A stretch of DNA of 50,887 nt from Rhodospirillales bacterium. GTDB taxonomy: Bacteria; Pseudomonadota; Alphaproteobacteria; Bin95. This document shows, piece by piece, positions 3,110 to 50,887 of the stretch. The translations under genes were made by a program, and so were the position numbers. Positions within the stretch are counted from its first letter, which is position 1, and the number at the start of each line of letters is the position of its first letter. Location of the stretch: NCBI GenBank assembly GCA_008081395.1, contig VMCJ01000062.1, forward strand, positions 1 to 50,887. The letters run 5' to 3'. The notes below the pieces were generated by a model. That model was not told where the DNA came from. It searched no databases and was given only the letters and a program-made list of their open reading frames with translations.

Positions 3110-3727
3110 TCATAGGGGCAACATCCAAATCGCAAACAGCGGGTCATTGCTCGACTTCATCGCGTGAATAATATTGGGCCTGTTATAGATCAATCCTCCA
3201 GGCCCAGGAGATTGCCATTCTCCGTTATTTTGTCTCCAGCACCCATCACTGAGCGCTATGTAAACCTCCTCTGGCGGATGTTGATGATTGGGATAAACAG
3301 TATTGGGCGCTAACAAACTTACCCCTATTCGGATGTCAGTTCGATATTCCAATCCCATATCACCCACTATAACGGCATTTGCGTGAGACTTAAGCCAATT
3401 TGGATCATTAGAGTGTCGATCCGATCGTGTCTGCCAGGAAAGTTTTGGAGTTAATACCTCCAAGGCTTCTGCTAGCCTACCTACTGGCCCAGACTTGGCT
3501 GTTTTAATAGCTTTATCCAACCAGGCTGTTACTGGAACTTCATGGGATGACAAAGCCCCTTTGTAGGCGCCAATATTTTTGAGCCTCTCATATACGAGAC
3601 CGGTTGCTGACCTAATTTTTTCGTCAGGTTTTCTTTTAAAAATTGATATTTTTAGCTCATTCAAAAAAAACTCAAGATCATCATTTCGAGGCATAATTTT
3701 TCTCAATTCATTATTAATCTGGAGCAT
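3110..3727 (-). CDS. DMSP lyase family cupin protein (DddQ/DddL-related); start may be the ATG at 3694
   Basis: Cupin metal motif GVSLLAPNTVYPNHQHPPEEVY followed by NRPNIIHAM and PLFAIW, typical of the DMSP_lyase family. Confidence 0.7.
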   Translation of the reverse strand: MLQINNELRKIMPRNDDLEFFLNELKISIFKRKPDEKIRSATGLVYERLKNIGAYKGALSSHEVPVTAWLDKAIKTAKSGPVGRLAEALEVLTPKLSWQTRSDRHSNDPNWLKSHANAVIVGDMGLEYRTDIRIGVSLLAPNTVYPNHQHPPEEVYIALSDGCWRQNNGEWQSPGPGGLIYNRPNIIHAMKSSNDPLFAIWMLPL

Positions 3728-6531: not shown

Positions 6532-7302
6532 ATGGGCAAAATGGAAGGTAAAGCCACAATAATAACGGGTGGTGCGAGGGGGATTGGTGCGGCAGCAGCC
6601 AAGCTATTTACTAGCGAAGGTAGCCGCGTGATGCTTGTTGATGTACTCGAAGACCCAATGGCAAAACTCGTTGCCGAGTTGGGTGAAGACAAAGCTGCTT
6701 ACGTAGTTGCAGATGTGTCCGATGAGGAAGCCACCAAACACTATGTCTCCCAGACAATCGCACACTTTGGCGCCGTGGATGCAGCACTTCTGAATGCGGG
6801 CATCGTAGGTGAAGTCAAATCCTTTGCAGACTATCCGGCAGAGGCCTTCGACCGACTAATAGCAATTAACGTGCGCGGTGTATGGCTTGGTCTAAAGTAT
6901 GTGATGCAGGCGATGAGTGCCAAGGGTGGATCAATCGTTTGCACTTCTTCAACATCAGGCATTAGAGCAACTAGAAATATAGCTCCCTACACGGCCTCAA
7001 AACATGCGGTGATAGGATTGATGCGTTCAGCTGCGCTTGAAGGTGCTGCCCACGATATTAGAGTAAATACAGTAAACCCCGCCGCCACTGAAACCGACAT
7101 GATTTTTGAGATTGAGACGAAGCGTGGAGTGGCAGCAGGCGCTGGCGTCAACGCTACTATGGCTCAAGGCACGCCAATGCAGCGCTACGGAACGGCGGAA
7201 GAAATTGCGAGAATGATGCTATTCTTGGCTAGCGATGACTCAAGCTTCTGCACGGGCGGCGTTTATATGGTAGATGGTGGAGTTTCAGCTGGCCGAGTCT
7301 GA
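6532..7302 (+). CDS. SDR family oxidoreductase
   Basis: TGGARGIG, NAGI, YTASKHAV. Start moved to ATG 6532 after a GGGGAG RBS. Confidence 0.9.
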   Translation: MGKMEGKATIITGGARGIGAAAAKLFTSEGSRVMLVDVLEDPMAKLVAELGEDKAAYVVADVSDEEATKHYVSQTIAHFGAVDAALLNAGIVGEVKSFADYPAEAFDRLIAINVRGVWLGLKYVMQAMSAKGGSIVCTSSTSGIRATRNIAPYTASKHAVIGLMRSAALEGAAHDIRVNTVNPAATETDMIFEIETKRGVAAGAGVNATMAQGTPMQRYGTAEEIARMMLFLASDDSSFCTGGVYMVDGGVSAGRV

Positions 7303-8394
7303 TCATTCAGCAAGCAAGAAGGGGGCACTCGATTCTATTGCTACCTTACGAACTTCTTCAATGAGAGTGTCTGCAATTGGTATACCATCTGCCGAACGAG
7401 TTGCTGTAGACCGTACCTCTGCATCACCTGCAACCTGTACAGGGTTTTCTGGATCTGCCGGAGGGGTTGCGTGAAGCATATCAATCATACGGTCTAAATC
7501 GGCTTGAAACTCTCCATCGGCACGGACCTTGGAAGGATCTATTGCCAAGAAGAAATGGCCGACATTTGTCTTCGTCCGCACTGGCTTGCCATCTGGACCC
7601 GGTCCATCAGACCAAGAGCCCGAGAGAGTTGCGCACAATATTTCGACCATAGTGGCAAGCCCATAACCTTTATGGCTACCTCGCTCTCTATCGCCACCTA
7701 AAGGGGTGAGACGACGCGCTTCAAATGCTGCTGCACCATCGGTTTCCATTTGGCCTTCACTATTTAGAGCCCAACCTTCGGGAATAGCTTTTCCTAGTCT
7801 TCGAGCAATGTTCAATTTTCCGACAGCTACAGTGGTGGTCGCCATATCAAGACTAAATGGTGGATTGCGCTCTGCAGGGGCTGCGAAGGCAATTGGGTTC
7901 GTGCCGAGTATAGGGTCGCGACCAAATGTTGGAACCATGGCTGGAGTTGGAGCGTTGGTCATCGCCATTCCAACAATACCCTCCTCAGCCGCCATTCTAC
8001 TGTAATAACCCGCAGCACCAAAATGATTGGAATTCCTGACGGAAACGACAGCCACGCCCATTGTTCGGGCCTTTTCCATTGCAAGCTTCATTGCCATTAC
8101 CGACGGAGGATGGCCCAGGCTACGGTCAGCATCGATTAAAGCAGCCGCAGGTTTTTCTCTAACGACTCGGATATCAGGGGTGTCCTTTATCATGCCACGA
8201 CCACGCCTCTGATGGTAACCTGGTAACATGCCAAGACCATGGCTATCGACACCCGAGAGGTCGGTTGCAACCATTACCTCTACAGTCGTAGCTATATTTT
8301 CAGATGTCATACCCCATGCCTGAAAGACTGCTTCAAGCTGAGCGCGAACAACACTTGCTGGAATATTGGTCACTGTTGCCATTCGCTTATTCAT
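7303..8394 (-). CDS. Ldh_2 family oxidoreductase (malate/L-lactate/sulfolactate/ureidoglycolate dehydrogenase-like)
   Basis: GVDSHG, NSNHFGAAG, GTNPIAF, LDMATT, HKGYGL. Confidence 0.88.
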   Translation of the reverse strand: MNKRMATVTNIPASVVRAQLEAVFQAWGMTSENIATTVEVMVATDLSGVDSHGLGMLPGYHQRRGRGMIKDTPDIRVVREKPAAALIDADRSLGHPPSVMAMKLAMEKARTMGVAVVSVRNSNHFGAAGYYSRMAAEEGIVGMAMTNAPTPAMVPTFGRDPILGTNPIAFAAPAERNPPFSLDMATTTVAVGKLNIARRLGKAIPEGWALNSEGQMETDGAAAFEARRLTPLGGDRERGSHKGYGLATMVEILCATLSGSWSDGPGPDGKPVRTKTNVGHFFLAIDPSKVRADGEFQADLDRMIDMLHATPPADPENPVQVAGDAEVRSTATRSADGIPIADTLIEEVRKVAIESSAPFLLAE

Positions 8395-34999: not shown

Positions 35000-35881
35000 T
35001 CAATTCCCAAGTGCTTTAATTGCGGCAGCTTTAGCAAGAATGCGCCGAGCCTGCACTGCGTGCAGATTTTCAATTAATTTCCCGTTAAGCGTCGCGACCC
35101 CTTGGCCTGTTGCTATTGCTGTCTCATAGGCTTCAACGACTTTTTCTGCGTTCTCTATTGCCTTTGGGTCAGGACCAAACCAAGCATTCGCCGGCGCAAC
35201 TTGTTTAGGATGAATTAATGTCTTCCCATCAAAACCCATATCAACAGCCTGCCGGCAATGGACCTCAAATTCTTCATCATCCGCTAGATTTAAATGAACG
35301 CCATCAAGGACGCTCCTACCGTGTGCGCGAGCCGCTAAAAGAACTAAACCAAAACTAGTGAAGAATGGAATTCGTTCCGGCGTATGGTTTGCTGTGAGGT
35401 CAACGGCCAGGTCAGAAGTACCCATTACTAAGACTGTAAGCTTTGAGTTTGCGGCTATTTCTTCGACACGAAGAACGCCTTTTGGCGTCTCTATCATAGC
35501 CCATAGCCATAAATTTTCTGGCGCGCCTGAATCTGCTAGAATTTGGGCCGCCTCTTCCAGCATTTTGGTGGACTCCACCTTTGGAATGACAACTGCATGA
35601 GCTCCTGATCGGGCTATAGCCTGGAGGTCTTCTTTACCCCATGGGGTGTCTAGTCCATTTGCCCTTATAGCAATCTCCCGCCTTCCATATTCACCCGAGA
35701 GCGCTGCTTGCACAGCCATTCCTCGTGCATCAGCCTTAGCGTCTGGAGCAACAGCATCCTCTAAGTCGAAAATAAGTGCATCAGCCGGCAAGCTTTTTGC
35801 TTTTTCGAGAGCTGAGGCGCGAGATGCAGGCATGTAGAGGACGCTGCGTCGCGGGCGTAAGACTTCCTCTTCTTGAGACAT
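35000..35881 (-). CDS. mcl2: CitE-family CoA ester lyase, (3S)-malyl-CoA thioesterase Mcl2-like
   Basis: RRSVLYMP...LEKA, DLEDAV, WAMIET, MGTSDL, MGFDGKTLIHP, GQGVA...GKLIENLH; pattern closely resembles Rhodobacter Mcl2. Confidence 0.75.
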   Translation of the reverse strand: MSQEEEVLRPRRSVLYMPASRASALEKAKSLPADALIFDLEDAVAPDAKADARGMAVQAALSGEYGRREIAIRANGLDTPWGKEDLQAIARSGAHAVVIPKVESTKMLEEAAQILADSGAPENLWLWAMIETPKGVLRVEEIAANSKLTVLVMGTSDLAVDLTANHTPERIPFFTSFGLVLLAARAHGRSVLDGVHLNLADDEEFEVHCRQAVDMGFDGKTLIHPKQVAPANAWFGPDPKAIENAEKVVEAYETAIATGQGVATLNGKLIENLHAVQARRILAKAAAIKALGN

Positions 35882-43738: not shown

Positions 43739-45001
43739 TCAGGTCAATCGGCGTCTTAACTCCGGATACAAGAAGTTTGCAATTAAGTAACAAAAAAATC
43801 CGATACTCGTCACAGTAATGACGGCCACAGCCGCGTCTCCGACCGTTTCTGCTATCCACCCAACATTCAAAATACCGATAGGCCCACAGCCAATACACAT
43901 TGCCAAAACGCCCATCACTCGCACCCTCATGTTCGAAGGTGCTCTCGCTAAAATGAGGCCTGACTGCATTGATCCAAAGCCCGAAAGCCCAAACCCTGCA
44001 ATGAAAAGAAAACCACCTGCCATGAAAATTAAAGCTGTCCCTCCAAGCAAACCCATCCAAGCGAATAAACCCATGCAAACGATATATGTACCGGCGCCAA
44101 TCGCAAAAATGCGGGCAAGTTGAGAAGGCCGCGCGAAGGCCGCAACAAGGGTAGCGCCGCAAAGGGCACCTAAACCCTCCAAACTTGTTAATGTTCCGGT
44201 TTGCAATGCACTCATACCAAAATTTTGACGACCAATAACTGGAAGCATTGAGACACAAGCAAAACCGAAGAGGTTTAAAATTATTGTCACTACCAGAACC
44301 GCCTGTATGACCCTTTCCTGACGAATATATCGCAGGCCTGATGTCAAACTTCTTAAGACGGGTTCTCGTCCAATTCCTTCACTTCTTATCCCTCGCCGCA
44401 CCCCAGCAATTAAGCAAGCGCCTATAAGGCACACACATGCGCCGAATCCGAATGGTCCTTGAATGCCCACAAAATCTAAAAGAGCACCTCCAATAAATGC
44501 TCCCGACGCTCGGGTAATGCTGTTAGTGGCACTTTCTAAGCCCATAGCTCTTGGTAAGCGCAGAGGCCCCGCAATATCTCCAACCATGGTTCTACGTACT
44601 GGAAGCTCAAAAGACCAAAAAACACCAGAGAGGGTCACGCCTATGGCAACGTGCCAAAGCTCCAATTTTTCAAGAACAGCAAGGCCAGCTAACGAGAAAT
44701 ACATCGCGGCCATCGACACCATCAAGCTAACCAACAGAACCCGACGATCGAAACGTTCTGCCCACGCCCCACAGAAGGCACCTAGAAGAAACATAGGAAG
44801 CATGCGAAGAAAAAGCATCTGCGCTGTAATCAAGGCCGATCCCGTGATTTGGACTGTGTAGTAGCCAACTACCAACACATCCATCCACCGCATGACGCCT
44901 ACCATACCGCCAGCAAGCCATACTCGCATAAAATCTCTATCGATGAAGAGAGATGATGGCTTTTCGAGCGGCTCAGCTTGTGCTGATATCACTTCCTGCA
45001 A
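43739..45001 (-). CDS. MFS transporter
   Basis: About 12 hydrophobic segments; motif A GAWAERFDRR, ELPVRR, APSNMRVRVMG. Confidence 0.88.
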   Translation of the reverse strand: MQEVISAQAEPLEKPSSLFIDRDFMRVWLAGGMVGVMRWMDVLVVGYYTVQITGSALITAQMLFLRMLPMFLLGAFCGAWAERFDRRVLLVSLMVSMAAMYFSLAGLAVLEKLELWHVAIGVTLSGVFWSFELPVRRTMVGDIAGPLRLPRAMGLESATNSITRASGAFIGGALLDFVGIQGPFGFGACVCLIGACLIAGVRRGIRSEGIGREPVLRSLTSGLRYIRQERVIQAVLVVTIILNLFGFACVSMLPVIGRQNFGMSALQTGTLTSLEGLGALCGATLVAAFARPSQLARIFAIGAGTYIVCMGLFAWMGLLGGTALIFMAGGFLFIAGFGLSGFGSMQSGLILARAPSNMRVRVMGVLAMCIGCGPIGILNVGWIAETVGDAAVAVITVTSIGFFCYLIANFLYPELRRRLT

Positions 45002-45033
45002 TTTATTCCTTTCCCGTTTTTACGAGACACACA

Positions 45034-46119
45034 ATGCAAATTATAGAACACGCTCGACTTCGTGATGCCATCACAGCGATTTGTGCTGCAGGTGGAAGCG
45101 AAGCCAAAGAGGCTCGCATAGTTGCTGACAACTTAGTAGATGCCAATATGGCCGGACATGATAGCCATGGCGTTGGAATGATTCCTACTTATATCACCAA
45201 CCTTCTTAACGGAGGACTAAAGCCAAACGAGCACGCTGAGATTGTTGTTGATAACGGAGCAGTCATAGTCATCGATGGCCGTTCCGGTTATGGCCAGGTT
45301 ATTGGGCAAGAGGCGATGGCCATTGGCATTGATAGGGCAAAGAAATTTGGGGCTGCTTGTGTCGGTCTAAGAAATGCCCATCACATAGGAAGAATCGGAC
45401 AATGGGGCGAACAATGCGCTGCTGCCGGTTTTGTATCGACACATCATGTGAATGTTGTCGGCCATAAAGCTTCAGTCGCTCCTTTTGGTGGCTCTGATGC
45501 CCGTTACATTACCAACCCATACTGTGCTGTCATGCCAGCCACGGACAAGAATCCACCAACGGTACTTGATTTCGCAACTAGCTTCGTTGCTATGGGCAAA
45601 ATACGTGTTGCCAGAAATAAGGGTGAGCCTGCACCCGAGGGAGCATTGATAGACACAACCGGACAGCCAAGTCGTGACCCCAACATCATGTACACTGACC
45701 CTATCGGAGGTGCCCTTAACCCTTTTGGTCAGCACAAAGGTTACGGACTAGCTCTTCTTAATGAGATATTGCCATCGGCCATGACGGGCACCGTCGGGTG
45801 TAGACCAGAGACACGGTTTGACCCACCAAAGACCATTAACAATATGCTTTCCATTATTATTGACCCCAGCCGTCTTGTCTCCCGTGAACGGTTTAATGAG
45901 GAAACTGATGCGGCCATTTCTAACGTTAAAGGTTCTCCAGCAGCTGACCCATCAAAGCCGGTAGTTGTGCCAGGTGACCCAGAACGGATCTCTTGGAAGA
46001 AAAGAGACTCGGAAGGAGTACCGGTGGATGACGAAACCTGGCGAGAAATAACAGCATCAGCTGTATCAGTTGGTATGCGTGCTGAAGATCTTGACGTCAT
46101 CGCAGGCATTAAGGCCTGA
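45034..46119 (+). CDS. Ldh_2 family hydroxycarboxylate dehydrogenase (YbiC/HcxB-like), copy 1
   Basis: GHDSHGVGMIP, GYGQVIG, HHIGRIGQWGEQ, TNPYC, LDFATS, HKGYGLA. Start at ATG 45034. Confidence 0.88.
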   Translation: MQIIEHARLRDAITAICAAGGSEAKEARIVADNLVDANMAGHDSHGVGMIPTYITNLLNGGLKPNEHAEIVVDNGAVIVIDGRSGYGQVIGQEAMAIGIDRAKKFGAACVGLRNAHHIGRIGQWGEQCAAAGFVSTHHVNVVGHKASVAPFGGSDARYITNPYCAVMPATDKNPPTVLDFATSFVAMGKIRVARNKGEPAPEGALIDTTGQPSRDPNIMYTDPIGGALNPFGQHKGYGLALLNEILPSAMTGTVGCRPETRFDPPKTINNMLSIIIDPSRLVSRERFNEETDAAISNVKGSPAADPSKPVVVPGDPERISWKKRDSEGVPVDDETWREITASAVSVGMRAEDLDVIAGIKA

Positions 46120-46133
46120 GGAGAATATATAAA

Positions 46134-47225
46134 ATGCCAACTATTCAAGCTGATAAACTCGAAGCCGTATGTCGCCTAATTACAACTGCTCGCGGGTCTG
46201 CGGAAAAGGAAGCAGATCAGGTTGCACGAAATCTGGTCGTCGCAAATTTAAAGGGCCATGACAGTCACGGTGTGGGGATGTTGCCTCGTTACATCAAGTC
46301 GTCCTTTGTGGGAGAACTTAATATCAATTCTCATGCAGAAATTGTCACTGATCATGGGCTAATCGTACAGATTGATGGGAATCAAGGTTACGGCCAGGTT
46401 ATTGGTGAAGAGGCCATGGAGATTGGCATTGAACGCGCCAAAGCTTTTGGGCTCTGCATCCTAACAATTCGGAATTCCTATCACTTATGCAGAATAGGAG
46501 CCTGGGGTGAACAATGCGCAGAACATGGTTTAGTCTCCATGCATCATGTAAACGGATATGGCCATCCAGGTTACGTTGCTCCATTCAGGGGATCCGATGC
46601 GAGGATTTCAACTAACCCCTACTGCGTTGTCTTGCCAAAAACCGCTAATAACCCTCCGACTGTGCTAGACTTTGCAACCTCGGCTGTTGCTCAAGGCAAA
46701 ATTAGAGTTGCCAAAAATAAGGGTGTTGAAGCGCCAGAGGGCGCTCTGATTAACCATAAAGGTCAGCCAACTCGAGACCCGATGGTGCTGTTTCAAGAAC
46801 CAATGGGTGCTCTTGCTGCTGTTGGTGGAGAAGCGGCAGGCCATAAAGGTTACGGGCTTGCTTTTATCAATGAACTTTTTGGCGGAGTTCTATCTGGTGG
46901 TCATACATGCCGGCCAGAGACGCATCATGAACATGACGTTATCATCAATGGGATGTTATCAATCATTATTGACCCTGAGAAAATGACTGATCGTGAGAGC
47001 TTTGAGGCTGAAATTGATGCTGCAATTGCCCACGTAACCGCATCTCCAGCAGCTGACCCTGAAAAACCTGTCCTTGTCCCAGGCGACCCAGAGCGCCAGA
47101 CTTTAGCTGAGAGACGTTCTGAGGGTGTGCCTATAGATGACGAAACTTGGCGCGAAATCCTTGCAACCGGTCAAAGTGTCGGTATCGAGCCCGATGAACT
47201 GCGAAGTCTAGCAGCTGTGAATTAA
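46134..47225 (+). CDS. Ldh_2 family hydroxycarboxylate dehydrogenase (YbiC/HcxB-like), copy 2
   Basis: GHDSHGVGMLP, GYGQVIG, RIGAWGEQ, TNPYC, LDFATS, HKGYGLA; GAGGAG RBS. Confidence 0.88.
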   Translation: MPTIQADKLEAVCRLITTARGSAEKEADQVARNLVVANLKGHDSHGVGMLPRYIKSSFVGELNINSHAEIVTDHGLIVQIDGNQGYGQVIGEEAMEIGIERAKAFGLCILTIRNSYHLCRIGAWGEQCAEHGLVSMHHVNGYGHPGYVAPFRGSDARISTNPYCVVLPKTANNPPTVLDFATSAVAQGKIRVAKNKGVEAPEGALINHKGQPTRDPMVLFQEPMGALAAVGGEAAGHKGYGLAFINELFGGVLSGGHTCRPETHHEHDVIINGMLSIIIDPEKMTDRESFEAEIDAAIAHVTASPAADPEKPVLVPGDPERQTLAERRSEGVPIDDETWREILATGQSVGIEPDELRSLAAVN

Positions 47226-47306: not shown

Positions 47307-47741
47307 ATGCCTGAATACATCCCTCCAGCAATCGATTGGGTACGTGAGCAAGTCGAGCTCTATGAAGGAAGCGGTGGCACTGAAGGAACAACTCTCAGAG
47401 ATACGGGGCTTCCATGCATTATTGTTACCCACCAAGGAGGTAAAACTGGAGGTATTCGGAAAATCCCTCTTATGCGGGTTAAAGTTGGACAAAGCTATGT
47501 GCTTGTTGGGTCTTACGGTGGTCGCCCGAAGAACCCTGTTTGGGTATACAATCTCCGAGCCCATCAGGACGTGGAAATCCGTGACAAAACTGAAGTCATG
47601 AAGATGCGTGTTCGCGAAGTTACAAACGAAAAGGAGCGAAAATCGCTATGGGATGCCAGCGTCGCAGCATTCCCCAGCTATGCAGAATACCAGGCTAAAA
47701 CCGACCGCACTATTCCAGTTTTTCTTGCTGAGCCAGTTTAG
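47307..47741 (+). CDS. Deazaflavin (F420H2)-dependent nitroreductase/quinone reductase family (Ddn/FDOR-A)
   Basis: G.KTG..RKIPLM, VLVGSYGG.PKNPVWVYNLRA, YAEYQAKTDRTIPVF. Confidence 0.88.
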   Translation: MPEYIPPAIDWVREQVELYEGSGGTEGTTLRDTGLPCIIVTHQGGKTGGIRKIPLMRVKVGQSYVLVGSYGGRPKNPVWVYNLRAHQDVEIRDKTEVMKMRVREVTNEKERKSLWDASVAAFPSYAEYQAKTDRTIPVFLAEPV

Positions 47742-47788: not shown

Positions 47789-49108
47789 TCAAGCAGCAAG
47801 TTGACGGCGCCAGTATTGAAGTCCCGCACTGTTAGGGTGTTGCACCCCTCTTTCTGCAAGGAGGGATTCTGCAAGCTTTCGGCGGCCAGCTTTTACAGCG
47901 CTATCCACTAAAACCTGGGTGTAGAGATCACGTTGGGCATGACTGCCCCCAACGCGTACCCATTCCTCACGACTTGCAAGCAATCCATCACAAGCTTTTT
48001 CATAATCACCCATTGTATAAGCCGCGAAAGCATCAGCGAGGGGAATTGAGACCTCACTAGCCAAGTTAGCAGCCCAGCCCTCACCATCTGCTCTTTCTGC
48101 TAGCTGCTGCCTCTGTTTTGCAAGCGCCTCAGACCTCCCGGCCTTTGCCAGCGCCGCAGACACATGGCTTTCCGTGAAGGCAAGTAATTGGTCGTCCATT
48201 GTGGCTTCTGCCTGCCCGGCAAGAGCATGCCAACGACTCCCCACATCTACCCCAGTCATTTCTAATCGCCATAATAAGGCAGCCGCATTTTGTACGTCGA
48301 TGTATGCCGTCGAAGGAGCTGGATAGACGGCACTATCATATAGCGCCAAAGTTTCATCGTAGCTCCCAGAATCCCATAGAAATAGTGCTTTATGCCACCA
48401 TATGTGCCTAGCAAGTGGGGCTCGGTCATCCCAAGCATTTAGAGGGTAATTGATCCATTCAATCCCATCTTTATGGCGTCCCTGCATTTCCAGAACGTGC
48501 GCAACGGTATGGACTGCCCATAAGTCCTCTGGGCTATGCTGAAGCGCAGCCCGGCCACACATTTCAGCTTTCTCGTACTCCCCTGCTTCCTCGTAACCAA
48601 AGCCAAGCATTCCCAAATAATGGCCAAATCCAACCACATCTTTATCCCAAGCATGGCTAACTCTAAGAACGGAGTCTCGTAAATCGAGGCTCTTCCCTCG
48701 CCAAAATAGGGTCTGTTGGTGTAGCTGTTTCAAAACAAAAAGATCTAATGGCCACTCTGCCATGTGCTGCCCAAGTACCTTGGATGCATGAGGAAGATCG
48801 TTCGCGCTCAATGCCTTCAAGCCAGCAAGCCAACCCTTAGCTCTTTGAGTCAAGCCGCCAGGCTTTGCTTCCGCCTTAGCAATATGTTCTGCCACTACTG
48901 GTAGGAGATTTCGCGACTGCGCGCCCATCAGCATATAACCCTTCAGGAGTTGGGCCATGGAGCAGTCTGGGTCTGCGGAAATTGCCGCGTCTGCATATTC
49001 GACGGCGTCGAGCCTAAATTCAAAGAATCGCGCCACTGCCTTATCAAAATTCTCCACGCAAGCTGAGCTGCTGGTATCAAGTTGATATCCACGAACGTCT
49101 TGTAGCAT
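47789..49108 (-). CDS. TPR protein, TTC38-like
   Basis: GMLGFGYEEAG.Y..AE, DLWAVHTVAHVLEMQG, HIWWH.ALF, LLWRL, GGSHAQRD. Start ATG 49108 (alternatively 49129). Confidence 0.82.
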   Translation of the reverse strand: MLQDVRGYQLDTSSSACVENFDKAVARFFEFRLDAVEYADAAISADPDCSMAQLLKGYMLMGAQSRNLLPVVAEHIAKAEAKPGGLTQRAKGWLAGLKALSANDLPHASKVLGQHMAEWPLDLFVLKQLHQQTLFWRGKSLDLRDSVLRVSHAWDKDVVGFGHYLGMLGFGYEEAGEYEKAEMCGRAALQHSPEDLWAVHTVAHVLEMQGRHKDGIEWINYPLNAWDDRAPLARHIWWHKALFLWDSGSYDETLALYDSAVYPAPSTAYIDVQNAAALLWRLEMTGVDVGSRWHALAGQAEATMDDQLLAFTESHVSAALAKAGRSEALAKQRQQLAERADGEGWAANLASEVSIPLADAFAAYTMGDYEKACDGLLASREEWVRVGGSHAQRDLYTQVLVDSAVKAGRRKLAESLLAERGVQHPNSAGLQYWRRQLAA

Positions 49109-49312
49109 CTGAAACTCCCGGAGAAACATAGTCTCGAAAAACTGCAATATTTTAGCGATGAAATCTAGAAGAGAGGGATTGTTGGGTTATTTTCAAATAA
49201 TGACATTAATAGTCTGACAGGCTTAATTTACTCAGAGAGCGTTTAATTTCGCTAAGAAGCCGCATCCTGTTAAAGTAATCATGAAATTCCTTCCCCTTAA
49301 GGAGAAAGCCCT

Positions 49313-49768
49313 ATGCCCGGTCTGTACTATGAAGAATTCGAAATTGGTCAGGTTTTCAAACACGACCTAACACGAACCGTAACAGAGATGGACAACGTCC
49401 TCTTCTGTGCACTTACCCATAATCCTCAACCTCTTCATCTTGATGAAGAGTTTGGTAAAGCGTCGGAGCACGGAGGCCGGTTAGTAAACTCACTTTTTAC
49501 ACTGGGTCTAGTCATTGGTGTTTCTGTGGGGGACACAACTCTCGGGACAACAATTGGCAATTTAGGAATGACCGATACGGCCTTCCGCAACCCAGTTTTT
49601 CACGGTGACACAATACGATCGGAAACAACTGTAATCGACAAAAGAGAGTCAAAATCTCGCCCCACCCAAGGCATAGTCACTTTTGAACACCGCGGTTTTA
49701 ACCAACATGGAAAAGAAGTGGCTTACTGCAAAAGAATGGGCCTAATGATGAAACGTCCAACAACCTGA
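49313..49768 (+). CDS. MaoC family dehydratase
   Basis: GLYYEEF, RTVTEMDN, NPQPLHLD, PVFHGDTI; AAGGAG RBS. Confidence 0.9.
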   Translation: MPGLYYEEFEIGQVFKHDLTRTVTEMDNVLFCALTHNPQPLHLDEEFGKASEHGGRLVNSLFTLGLVIGVSVGDTTLGTTIGNLGMTDTAFRNPVFHGDTIRSETTVIDKRESKSRPTQGIVTFEHRGFNQHGKEVAYCKRMGLMMKRPTT

Positions 49769-49784
49769 ACAAAATAGGATAGAA

Positions 49785-50711
49785 ATGGTGGAAGCTATTT
49801 CCTTCAACGCTACTCGAAGCTGGACGAAGACGCTACCAAACGCGACAGTCGTTCAGGCTAGAGAGTTTGACTTCAAAGGGCCATTCAATGGCCGAAATGC
49901 AGACGCATCAGAAGACAGACCGCAAGCATTTCGGGTTGAGCAACCACCCGGTTCAATAGTAGAGCCTCATTTCCATGTAGCCGCAGAATTTCAGCTAATT
50001 GCTTGTGGAGGCGGTAGATTAGGTAGGCATGAATTAAAGCCACTATCAATCCATTATTCAGGTGCATTCACCCCTTATGGTCCTATTGTAGCGGATGCGC
50101 GTGAAGGGGTGATCTATTACACACTTCGCCCCCGTCATGACCCAGGTGCTTTATTTTTGCCTGACGCAAAAGAAAAGTTGCAGCCTGCACCAAAGCGCTT
50201 TTTCATGACTGAACCCGAGCAAAAAAATCTAAGCTCAGCTGTATTGAGGACATGGGAAGCCCCAAATTTATCCTTCTTATACGGATCAGAAGCTGATGAT
50301 GCCGCTGCCTGGCGCGCAACACTTGGACCAAATCAGCGACTCACTCCACCCAAACCAAAAGGCGACGGTTATTACGTTGTTGTAACTGGTGGAAGCTGGA
50401 TATTTTCTGGAGAAAAATTTCCAGAATGGTCTCTGGCCTTTGCAGCGCAGGGCGAGTCTGCACCCGAGCTCTTGGCAGGAGAAGAAGGCCTGGATGCAGT
50501 GATCCTCCAATTTCCCGATAATTCGTCTAGGGTCAAGAAATCTATTTCTCTAGAAGATCAACATGAGTGTCCACTGTGTGGCTATGTTTATAACCAAGCG
50601 GAGGGAGACCCCGAAGCAGGGGTGGCGAAAGGAACTGTTTTCGCTGACGTCCCATCAGACTGGACATGCCCTAATTGTGATGCGCCAAAATCAGATTTTC
50701 AGATAATTTGA
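49785..50711 (+). CDS. Bicupin-like protein fused to a C-terminal rubredoxin domain
   Basis: Cupin motif 1 G-x5-HFH-x3-E-x6-G; C-terminal CPLCGYVY...GDP..GV..GT.F.DVP.DWTCPNC...KSDF is a full rubredoxin. Confidence 0.8.
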   Translation: MVEAISFNATRSWTKTLPNATVVQAREFDFKGPFNGRNADASEDRPQAFRVEQPPGSIVEPHFHVAAEFQLIACGGGRLGRHELKPLSIHYSGAFTPYGPIVADAREGVIYYTLRPRHDPGALFLPDAKEKLQPAPKRFFMTEPEQKNLSSAVLRTWEAPNLSFLYGSEADDAAAWRATLGPNQRLTPPKPKGDGYYVVVTGGSWIFSGEKFPEWSLAFAAQGESAPELLAGEEGLDAVILQFPDNSSRVKKSISLEDQHECPLCGYVYNQAEGDPEAGVAKGTVFADVPSDWTCPNCDAPKSDFQII

Positions 50712-50832
50712 AGCCCCTAATTAAAGACTGATCTATATCTTCAATGCGGTAACATCTCTGAATTCAATGCAATAATCTGTTCCGGACAGCATACTGTTGA
50801 CCGCCCAAGTTATCAGCACGCTTTGGTGGGAA

Positions 50833-50887
50833 TGGTGCCCCGGATAGGATTCGAACCTATGACCTACCGCTTAGGAGGCGGTCGCTC
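50833..50887 (-). tRNA. tRNA-Arg(CCU), 5' part beyond the window edge
   Basis: Minus strand ...GAGCGACCGCCTCCTAAGCGGTAGGTCATAGGTTCGAATCCTATCCGGGGCACCA. Anticodon stem ACCGC/GCGGT around CCT, T-loop, CCA. Confidence 0.93.

Follow-up and report, generated by a model that had tools for sequence, protein, structure and literature searches.

The window analysed here, a 50,887-nucleotide stretch of Rhodospirillales DNA (contig VMCJ01000062.1 of assembly GCA_008081395.1, positions 1 to 50,887 of the forward strand), carries near its end a gene that joins a two-barrel cupin (bicupin) to a rubredoxin. The open reading frame (ORF; 49785..50711, + strand) encodes 308 amino acids followed by a stop codon, was uninterrupted on direct reading and was supported by an AlphaFold2 (AF2) model as well as by fused relatives. 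A preliminary description of this DNA had claimed one continuous ORF composed of a first cupin, a second cupin-like repeat and a rubredoxin, and all three parts were found to be present. The start codon lies 16 nt downstream of the stop codon of an upstream MaoC-type hydratase gene and is preceded, at a distance of 5 nt, by the sequence AGGA (49776-49779, + strand), a likely ribosome-binding site. A promoter and terminator scan of positions 49100-50887 yielded no signal above that of shuffled sequences.

Structure prediction confirmed that residues 1-245 form a bicupin, to which no solved family is close. Evidence beyond single-sequence look-up was needed for this call, because sequence searches of Pfam, NCBIfam and the PDB provided none. 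Pfam recognized nothing on residues 1-250 at E ≤0.1 and, like NCBIfam, detected only the C-terminal rubredoxin, and residues 1-250, used as a sequence query, had no match among all PDB chains at E values up to 10. The AF2 model of the window protein, built with a 142-row alignment, had a mean predicted local distance difference test score (pLDDT) of 93.5 and a predicted template modelling score (pTM) of 0.86. When this complete model was compared with the PDB by Foldseek, at least 270 matches at E ≤0.001 were obtained, the top ones of which were all bicupins. The best fold match was 3o14 (ChrR-like; E 9.1e-11, template modelling (TM) score 0.71 normalized to the target); further top matches were DR1152, the putative dioxygenase 2qdr, BacB, oxalate decarboxylase, salicylate 1,2-dioxygenase, quercetinase and seed storage globulins. 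The 45 N-terminal residues were modelled as beta strands of the barrel. The N-terminus had been expected to fold as a cupin, an expectation with which both the confidence of the model and the bicupin matches agreed.

The first of the two barrels, a predicted metal-binding barrel with its core at approximately residues 40-135 (49902..50189, + strand), was delimited with the aid of model strands 47-115 and a separate Foldseek search of residues 1-140. Modelled alone, these 140 residues reached a pLDDT of 93.1 and matched small metal cupins at E values of ~1e-5 to 1e-4 and TM scores of ~0.5-0.7. Among these matches were RemF, Rru_A2000, DddK, 2,4'-dihydroxyacetophenone dioxygenase (DAD), KdgF, oxalate decarboxylase OxdC and the ChrR cupin. 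The second barrel (approximately residues 140-244; 50202..50516, + strand), which is based on the bicupin matches of the whole model, has no conserved metal ligands. A comparison by hhalign of the family profile with the C-terminal cupin of Pirin covered this second barrel only and was weak (E 0.0085).

Conservation at the predicted metal site was counted over 261 aligned relatives, 90 of which were fused to a rubredoxin and 171 unfused. Cupin motif 1 has the consensus G(X)5HXH(X)3-4E(X)6G. The window protein matches this consensus with G56...H62-F-H64-VAA-E68-FQLIAC-G75, and the motif as quoted in the preliminary description (G56-x5-H62-x-H64-x3-E68-x6-G75; 49950..50009, + strand) is exact in the sequence. 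Residues H62, H64 and G75 were invariant, as were Y98 and G99 (261/261 each). Position 68 was occupied by Gln in 221 of the 261 relatives and by Glu in 40, with Glu in the clade of the window protein; the proposed Glu ligand of motif 1 is thus present in this protein, but represents a minority state among its relatives. High conservation was also observed for Q70 and R115 (each 256/261), T96 (235/261) and R138 (230/261, including 90/90 fused sequences). H82 occurred in 88 of 90 fused versus 107 of 171 unfused sequences, a difference that may merely reflect kinship. In the second barrel, E224 was the only residue among His, Cys, Asp and Glu to reach 70% conservation, and the absence from this barrel of any His, Cys or Asp conserved at ≥70% bears out its earlier characterization as a ligand-less repeat.

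In canonical cupins, the third His ligand is carried by motif 2, whose consensus is G(X)5PXG(X)2H(X)3N. The window protein has no His within a motif of this kind, and candidates for a third-ligand or catalytic role lie in the segment H90-P100 (HYSGAFTPYGP; 50052..50084, + strand). These are H90, located on the preceding strand and conserved in 237 of 261 relatives (91%), and the invariant Y98 of the sequence T-P-Y-G-P. The Pfam model Cupin_2 covered residues 57-116 of relative P0024 (profile positions 2-65 of 70) and residues 57-117 of relative P0117 (profile positions 2-66). With an offset of +7 for P0024, the cupin core would fall at about residues 50-110 of the window protein, a placement that is approximate; on what we take to be the layout of the Cupin_2 profile, the third ligand would then lie somewhere in T96-V102. 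Direct profile comparisons aligned motif 1 only, both with Cupin_2 proteins in the PDB (E 0.038) and, by hhalign, with a dimethylsulfoniopropionate (DMSP)-lyase cupin encoded elsewhere in the window (19 columns, E 0.42).

Judged by these conservation patterns, the metal could be bound by His2-Glu-His90, by His2-Glu-Tyr98 or by both. An unusual ligand set, as put forward in the preliminary description, is possible; it was not borne out by the alignment, in which the overlooked H90 could supply a third His. The emphasis placed on the Tyr of FTPYGP was justified in so far as Y98 is invariant and the Cupin_2 ranges are compatible with its placement at the third His, but not for the preceding Phe, since position 95 varies freely (Y, H, F, E, Q or D). 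Because every fused and every unfused member carries Y98, it is, within this alignment, a trait of the whole family and not of the fusion. A division of active sites between fused forms (F/Y95 with E68) and unfused forms (H95 with Q68) was considered and rejected: position 95 was variable in both groups, and Q68 also dominates the fused forms (65/90).

The C-terminal domain (residues 260-308; 50562..50708, + strand) was recognized as a complete rubredoxin with CPLC and CPNC knuckles and a Tyr, Phe and Trp core, in full agreement with the preliminary description. Pfam model PF00301 matched residues 260-305 over profile positions 2-47 of 47 (E 3.6e-19; 69 bits, versus a cut-off of 23). The C-terminal 56 residues aligned with solved rubredoxins at an E value of 1.1e-17, free of gaps over 47 residues, and in the gap-free alignment to 1yk5 the aromatic core positions agreed and both knuckles (C262-P-L-C265 and C295-P-N-C298) were included. 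The one clear departure was an Asp behind the second knuckle, where a Gly is usual. In betaproteobacterial copies, Ser, Gly or Ala follows the second CxxC pair and the Gly that follows the first knuckle is changed to Ala or Ser. The two CxxC pairs were exactly 29 residues apart in 90 of 90 fused sequences, which had been defined by a pattern that allowed 25-40 residues between the pairs. As read from the alignment, this constant spacing across divergent clades implies selection for what would be a functional Fe(Cys)4 centre. Among the best 60 of 63 PDB matches, the rubredoxin fusions that occur in nature were alkane monooxygenase AlkB, flavorubredoxin and hydroxylamine reductase; none of these 60 matches was a cupin fused to a rubredoxin.

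The linker between the two modules (residues 245-259; 50517..50561, + strand), which had been quoted in the preliminary description, is present as DNSSRVKKSISLEDQ. It is the region of lowest model confidence and includes the only stretch with a pLDDT below 50 (residues 250-253). The distance from the end of the bicupin to the first Cys was 17-20 residues in 24 sequences, in which the search pattern was anchored on the bicupin end; in 12 other sequences the pattern matched further upstream, and the remaining sequences were unmatched. On reading of the linker codons, in-frame ATG, GTG and TTG were all found to be absent, and the ATG at position 50563 is out of frame. The claim that the rubredoxin is not a separate gene, for which the lack of an in-frame ATG had been cited, therefore stood and extended to GTG and TTG.

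An exhaustive HMMER search with residues 1-250 against 1.84 billion representatives yielded 1219 matches at E ≤0.001, with 863 at E ≤1e-10 and 53 at E ≤1e-30, where each of the 1219 represents a cluster at 50% identity. Most of the best 150 representatives were 230-270 amino acids long, with unfused forms typically of 240-260 amino acids. Seven of these 150 (P0029, P0078, P0103, P0106, P0144, P0160 and P0169) had lengths of 300-314 amino acids and two C-terminal CxxC pairs. A word-index search returned 13 clusters of 301-319 amino acids that carry PF00301 and share 64-100% identity, together with 15 clusters of 192-294 amino acids in which no Pfam domain was found. In the source records, the fused form was called 'rubredoxin' where it was named and the unfused form 'hypothetical protein'. 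Among 142 aligned members, Pfam detected Rubredoxin in 20, Cupin_2 in 18 (E ≤0.01), Cupin_7 in 7 and Cupin_1 in 4; the best Cupin_2 score of any relative, 27.0 bits, was just under the gathering cut-off of 27.2. NCBIfam held no model that matched the bicupin part in any of 29 relatives, and look-alikes in the ESM Atlas were 'hypothetical protein' clusters, one of them with Cupin_7 on 39% of its members. By these profile searches, the N-terminal module is a large unnamed family at the detection edge of cupin profiles. One member, P0071 (556 amino acids), carries C-terminal pentapeptide repeats instead of a rubredoxin. A search for longer relatives of the bicupin (540-2000 amino acids) gave none, which is weak evidence.

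The reality of the fusion was examined in other genomes. A scan of one genome per species identified 309 encoding stretches, from which 79 loci were kept; the locus ranking favoured fused forms, since the query included the rubredoxin. A hidden Markov model (HMM) of the rubredoxin domain, applied to six-frame ORFs, detected 73 ORFs in 63 loci and the window, all of which lay inside bicupin ORFs. In one of these loci (L001), from a separately assembled Rhodospirillales metagenome-assembled genome (MAG), the region is syntenic with the window at 94% DNA identity, the junction is in frame and the linker differs by substitutions only. An assembly artefact is excluded for the family. That the fusion arose from an assembly or annotation error, from a decaying gene or from two genes joined by a sequencing error is practically out of the question, given the in-frame junction of L001, the 13 clusters and 73 copies, and the lack of an in-frame start in the linker; the preliminary description had likewise taken the fusion as genuine. 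Nothing was found in favour of such an error, which was considered only on account of the window being one assembly, probably of metagenomic origin.

The window protein belongs to an alphaproteobacterial clade in which all members are fused. A much larger fused clade was found in MAGs of Betaproteobacteria/Burkholderiales, often as tandem copies, with four in a row in L023 (5613-9478) and two each in L011, L015 and L027. The supposed rarity of the architecture was thus contradicted. In one MAG (contigs CANJQI01...), fused copies were observed on at least five contigs. Copies from MAGs recorded as 'Streptomycetaceae' or 'Bordetella parapertussis' (L025, L067, L071; L017, L040, L057, L060, L079) nest tightly among rows from Burkholderiales, and such titles look unreliable, as exemplified by L067, which stands next to L056 in the tree. 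A literature search on cupins and rubredoxins, judged by titles and abstract openings, revealed nothing on this architecture or on the bicupin family. This outcome, together with the PDB matches listed, was in line with the earlier statement that no cupin-rubredoxin of this architecture had been characterized.

Two phylogenetic analyses differed in the number of changes of the fused state. A FastTree phylogeny of 261 domains indicated at least 5-6 changes, whereas only two were found in a quick IQ-TREE analysis (LG+C20) of 80 rows (38 fused and 42 unfused), which left out 181 of the 261 sequences and for which rows were picked partly by hand and partly at random. A single fused clade was not rejected by the approximately unbiased (AU) test (p 0.434). 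Repeated gain and loss of the rubredoxin, as of an optional accessory domain, had been considered and was dropped in view of the two changes in the IQ-TREE analysis and the result of the AU test.

Directly upstream of the fused gene lies a gene for a 151-amino-acid MaoC-type (R)-specific enoyl-CoA hydratase (49313..49768, + strand; PF01575, E 1.3e-22). The best NCBIfam match of this protein was NF038241 RipB_Ich, at 140 bits (140-148 over the hydratases scored) versus an equivalog cut-off of 340. The clade of the window comprises 11 sources (L001-L010 and the window), in 10 of which a MaoC orthologue (84-100% identity) is located directly upstream of the fused gene, in support of the link that the preliminary description had drawn to this neighbour. 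In seven clade sources, a 295-amino-acid HpcH/CitE-type lyase is encoded between MaoC and the fused gene; its best NCBIfam match was RipC_Ccl, with 173 bits versus a cut-off of 375. The lyase ORF of L004 shares 8 nt with the fused gene. This RipC/CitE-like lyase is absent from the operon in the window, L001 and L002. An HpcH-family gene elsewhere in the window (35000-35881) was considered as its counterpart and dismissed as a paralogue, since its product was only 29% identical to the operon lyase. Neighbour scans found no CoA-transferase in the alphaproteobacterial operon. Because the RipB/Ich and RipC/Ccl scores are far under the equivalog cut-offs, hydratase and lyase likely act on a substrate that is related to, but different from, that of the itaconate pathway. 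Between the window and L004, the MaoC proteins are 90% identical and the fused proteins only 63%.

Transcribed divergently from this operon is a gene for a 452-amino-acid TPR-like protein (47789..49147, - strand), for which only weak TPR matches and no family assignment were obtained and of which an orthologue (60-96% identity) is found upstream in eight clade loci besides the window. Genes within two positions of fused copies in 64 sources encoded TctC carboxylate-binding proteins (23), MaoC (8), MmgE/PrpD (7) and HpcH/CitE (6). Near unfused copies (16 loci), family III CoA-transferases (5), carboxyltransferases (3) and 4HBT thioesterases (3) were encountered within the same distance. Other neighbours were varied catabolic genes, including TauD, CMD, aminotransferases, PrpF, UbiD and flavin hydroxylases. 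A P450 gene was also seen next to an unfused copy. In two Magnetovibrio-type MAGs (L053, 4371-7766; L061, 1443-4828), an unfused bicupin gene stands between an amidase gene and that of a Rieske oxygenase alpha subunit, which is a different and clearly oxidative context.

Several further features of the window were recorded. Three paralogues of the Ldh_2 family (malate/L-lactate/sulfolactate dehydrogenase) are encoded at 7303-8394 (- strand), 44953-46119 (+ strand) and 46134-47225 (+ strand); the latter two form a tandem pair just upstream of the region of the fused gene, and this pair also occurs in L002. A 144-amino-acid protein of the F420H2-dependent quinone reductase / deazaflavin-dependent nitroreductase family (47307-47741, + strand; PF04075, E 2.8e-37; TIGR00026) is kept in L001 and L002. 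By the name of its model, such a protein is characteristic of high-GC Gram-positive bacteria, yet the context here is alphaproteobacterial. The DMSP-lyase-family cupin mentioned above (3110-3727, - strand; PF16867, E 2.3e-43), which has only motif 1 in common with the bicupin family, hints at a marine organism. The end of the window (approximately 50833-50887, - strand) lies inside a tRNA gene that is cut off and was consequently not reported by ARAGORN; in L001, a complete tRNA-Arg gene (anticodon CCT) at 7046-7121 (- strand) matches the last bases of the window.

The fused protein was compared with known systems in which its modules, or modules similar to them, occur. Bacterial 3-hydroxyanthranilate 3,4-dioxygenase (HAO) possesses an extra Cys4 site in some members but not in others. 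HAO resembles the window protein in being a cupin metalloenzyme with a second, Cys4-bound iron at the C-terminus, so that a cupin with such an iron site has a precedent. HAO consists of one cupin domain and a short Cys4 tail; the window protein has two barrels, falls in a sequence family unrelated to HAO and bears a complete PF00301 domain on a flexible linker. Homology to HAO was not detected by the PDB sequence search of residues 1-250 (E ≤10), and HAO was absent from the fold matches listed. Liu et al. (2015, J Biol Chem 290:15621) reportedly assigned to the C-terminal Cys4 site of HAO the role of a reservoir that supplies the catalytic iron of the cupin.

A canonical rubredoxin joined covalently to a metalloenzyme also occurs in AlkB-rubredoxin (8f6t), NorV flavorubredoxin (4d02, 7r0f) and rubredoxin-hydroxylamine reductase (7e0l), and the catalytic metal centres of AlkB and NorV receive electrons from this rubredoxin. 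The partners in these systems are a membrane diiron hydroxylase, a flavodiiron protein and a hybrid-cluster protein, respectively, instead of a cupin. The best structural match of the whole model, 3o14, is the Marinobacter protein Maqu_0586, entitled 'anti-ECF sigma factor ChrR'. Weak matches to the ChrR cupin-like family Cupin_7 were obtained in 7 of 142 relatives. However, 3o14 shares only 17% sequence identity with the window protein, lacks a rubredoxin and is a structural-genomics entry with a title that does not provide a function. An N-terminal zinc-binding anti-sigma domain of the ChrR type was not found in the window protein by Pfam or NCBIfam. BacB, OxdC, salicylate/gentisate 1,2-dioxygenase and quercetin 2,4-dioxygenase are similar in their two-barrel fold, His-rich cupin metal site and acid substrates, but differ in sequence (10-16% identity) and structure (root-mean-square deviation 7-10 Å), are in several cases 340-380 amino acids long and have no rubredoxin. 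Relative to these enzymes, the window protein has ligand residues in its first barrel only. The itaconate-degradation enzymes RipB/Ich and RipC/Ccl were the best NCBIfam matches of the operon hydratase and, in seven sister loci, of the lyase; the operon differs from RipABC in its scores, which are under the equivalog cut-offs, and in having no RipA-type CoA-transferase.

For the fused protein, the data show the ORF, its fold and conserved residues, the rubredoxin, the conservation of the fusion and the operon; which metal is bound and by which ligands, how electrons flow and what reaction takes place on which substrate were inferred. Tentatively, and with a probability somewhat short of even, the protein is proposed to be a metalloenzyme of a carboxylate or acyl-CoA pathway, in which the rubredoxin relays electrons to the cupin metal. 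It would be a soluble enzyme with two metal centres. A mononuclear metal would be held in the first barrel by His62, His64 and Glu68, completed by His90 and/or Tyr98; the conserved Gln70, Thr96, Arg115 and Arg138 would be suited to hold a carboxylate substrate, and the second barrel would serve as a ligand-less scaffold. Tethered by a linker of ~15 residues, the Fe(Cys)4 rubredoxin would take up single electrons from a cellular donor and pass them intramolecularly to the cupin metal, where they would either serve an O2-dependent reaction or bring an oxidized metal back to the active ferrous form. Together with the RipB/Ich-like enoyl-CoA hydratase that is co-transcribed with it, and in sister genomes also with the RipC/CitE-like acyl-CoA lyase, the enzyme would form a joint pathway for breaking down a short dicarboxylate or its CoA ester. 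Such a small dicarboxylate or CoA ester is suggested as a candidate substrate by the conserved arginines and by the operon.

This electron relay was favoured because the rubredoxin is complete and appears to be under selection, because a precedent exists in AlkB and flavorubredoxin, in which the rubredoxin module functions in electron transfer, and because of a docking signal. Docking of the rubredoxin against the bicupin as separate chains gave weak support, with a score of 0.59 versus 0.02 for the best of three controls. Individual runs scored 0.73, 0.06 and 0.59, with an agreement of contacts of at least 45% and a partner pLDDT of at least 83. Of 80 solved complexes, 58 passed the applied mark, as did 2 of 110 mismatched pairs, but only 7 of those 80 complexes passed it with scores ≤0.60, and both passing mismatches scored in that range; since the docking used custom alignments, these calibration counts hold only roughly. 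Small iron-sulfur carriers that reduce a mononuclear non-haem iron offer an analogy. XylT-type ferredoxins reactivate catechol 2,3-dioxygenase, and in Rieske oxygenases the Rieske cluster reduces the mononuclear non-haem iron in every turnover. These systems differ from the one proposed here in their [2Fe-2S] clusters and unrelated catalytic folds, and XylT is a separate protein.

Several observations weigh against a relay. One of the three docking runs scored 0.06, and the docking as a whole returned no interface. Members without a rubredoxin form the majority, both in the aligned sample (171 of 261) and among the best representatives (143 of 150). The preliminary description had suggested a check for rubredoxin genes beside unfused homologues; such a gene was found within ~6 kb in none of 16 unfused loci, nor did an HMM search of six-frame ORFs reveal a separate one elsewhere in the window. 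Because most members are unfused and these 16 loci lack a rubredoxin gene, bicupin chemistry in general does not need a dedicated rubredoxin. Genes of the rubredoxin reductase type were not present among 49 scanned window proteins or among the scanned neighbours of related loci, apart from L034, which encodes an OYE/Pyr_redox_2 protein, and L045, where a Pyr_redox_3 protein neighbours an unfused copy. Furthermore, non-redox cupins (RemF cyclase, DddK lyase, KdgF, BacB isomerase and phosphomannose isomerase) occur alongside oxygenases among the fold neighbours, and redox-neutral enzymes are as many as oxygenases; the fold itself therefore does not point to redox chemistry.

Some of these observations can be accommodated by two other explanations. 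The rubredoxin might be a metal store or a structural module, comparable to the Cys4 site of HAO. A reservoir role has reportedly been described for a cupin that ends in an Fe(Cys)4 site, and such a role is compatible with the many relatives that lack both the domain and a nearby rubredoxin gene and with the absence of a linked reductase gene from the scanned neighbours. The full rubredoxin fold of the window protein, with its aromatic core and E values of ~1e-17 to solved electron-carrier rubredoxins, argues against it, as do the short Cys4 tail that constitutes the HAO site and the lack of similarity to HAO in the sequence and fold comparisons; a store or structural module was considered unlikely. 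Alternatively, the bicupin may run a redox-neutral step, as an isomerase, lyase, decarboxylase or cyclase for a dicarboxylate or CoA ester, with the rubredoxin as a sensor of redox state, iron or oxygen by which the enzyme would be switched, or as a docking module for a different protein. Close fold neighbours such as BacB, RemF, DddK, KdgF and oxalate decarboxylase, the redox-neutral character of the operon partners (hydratase and lyase) and the predominance of unfused relatives speak for this explanation. No precedent is known, however, for a rubredoxin as a regulatory domain on an enzyme that acts on small molecules, and the weak docking signal points to the protein's own bicupin body rather than to an outside partner. 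A redox-neutral role, too, was judged unlikely. Quite improbable was considered a self-contained class of two-centre oxygenases, in which the rubredoxin would take the role of a Rieske cluster and deliver single electrons to a cupin iron (His62, His64, Glu/Gln68, Tyr98) at which O2 would be activated for reaction with a small dicarboxylate or CoA ester.

The fused bicupin-rubredoxin is a real, conserved and widespread gene, and both of its modules are of known kinds. Its N-terminal part belongs to a bicupin family of more than 1000 clusters for which no Pfam or NCBIfam model is available and of which no solved or characterized member is detectable by sequence. The label 'rubredoxin' hides the catalytic part of the fused form, which is abundant in environmental Alpha- and Betaproteobacteria, often in multiple copies and near genes for carboxylate uptake and acyl-CoA metabolism. 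If the rubredoxin does not feed the cupin metal, the protein would join HAO as a second case, and a clearer one, of a cupin with an accessory Cys4 iron site. If the improbable two-centre oxygenase were nevertheless to prove true, the tandem paralogues beside TctC in Burkholderiales would represent a hidden toolbox of carboxylate-oxidizing enzymes. If the tentatively favoured electron relay is correct, the fused protein would offer a compact and soluble system, easy to express, in which the delivery of electrons to a mononuclear metal site could be studied, and it may reveal that small organic acids are turned over through oxidative steps so far unrecognized.

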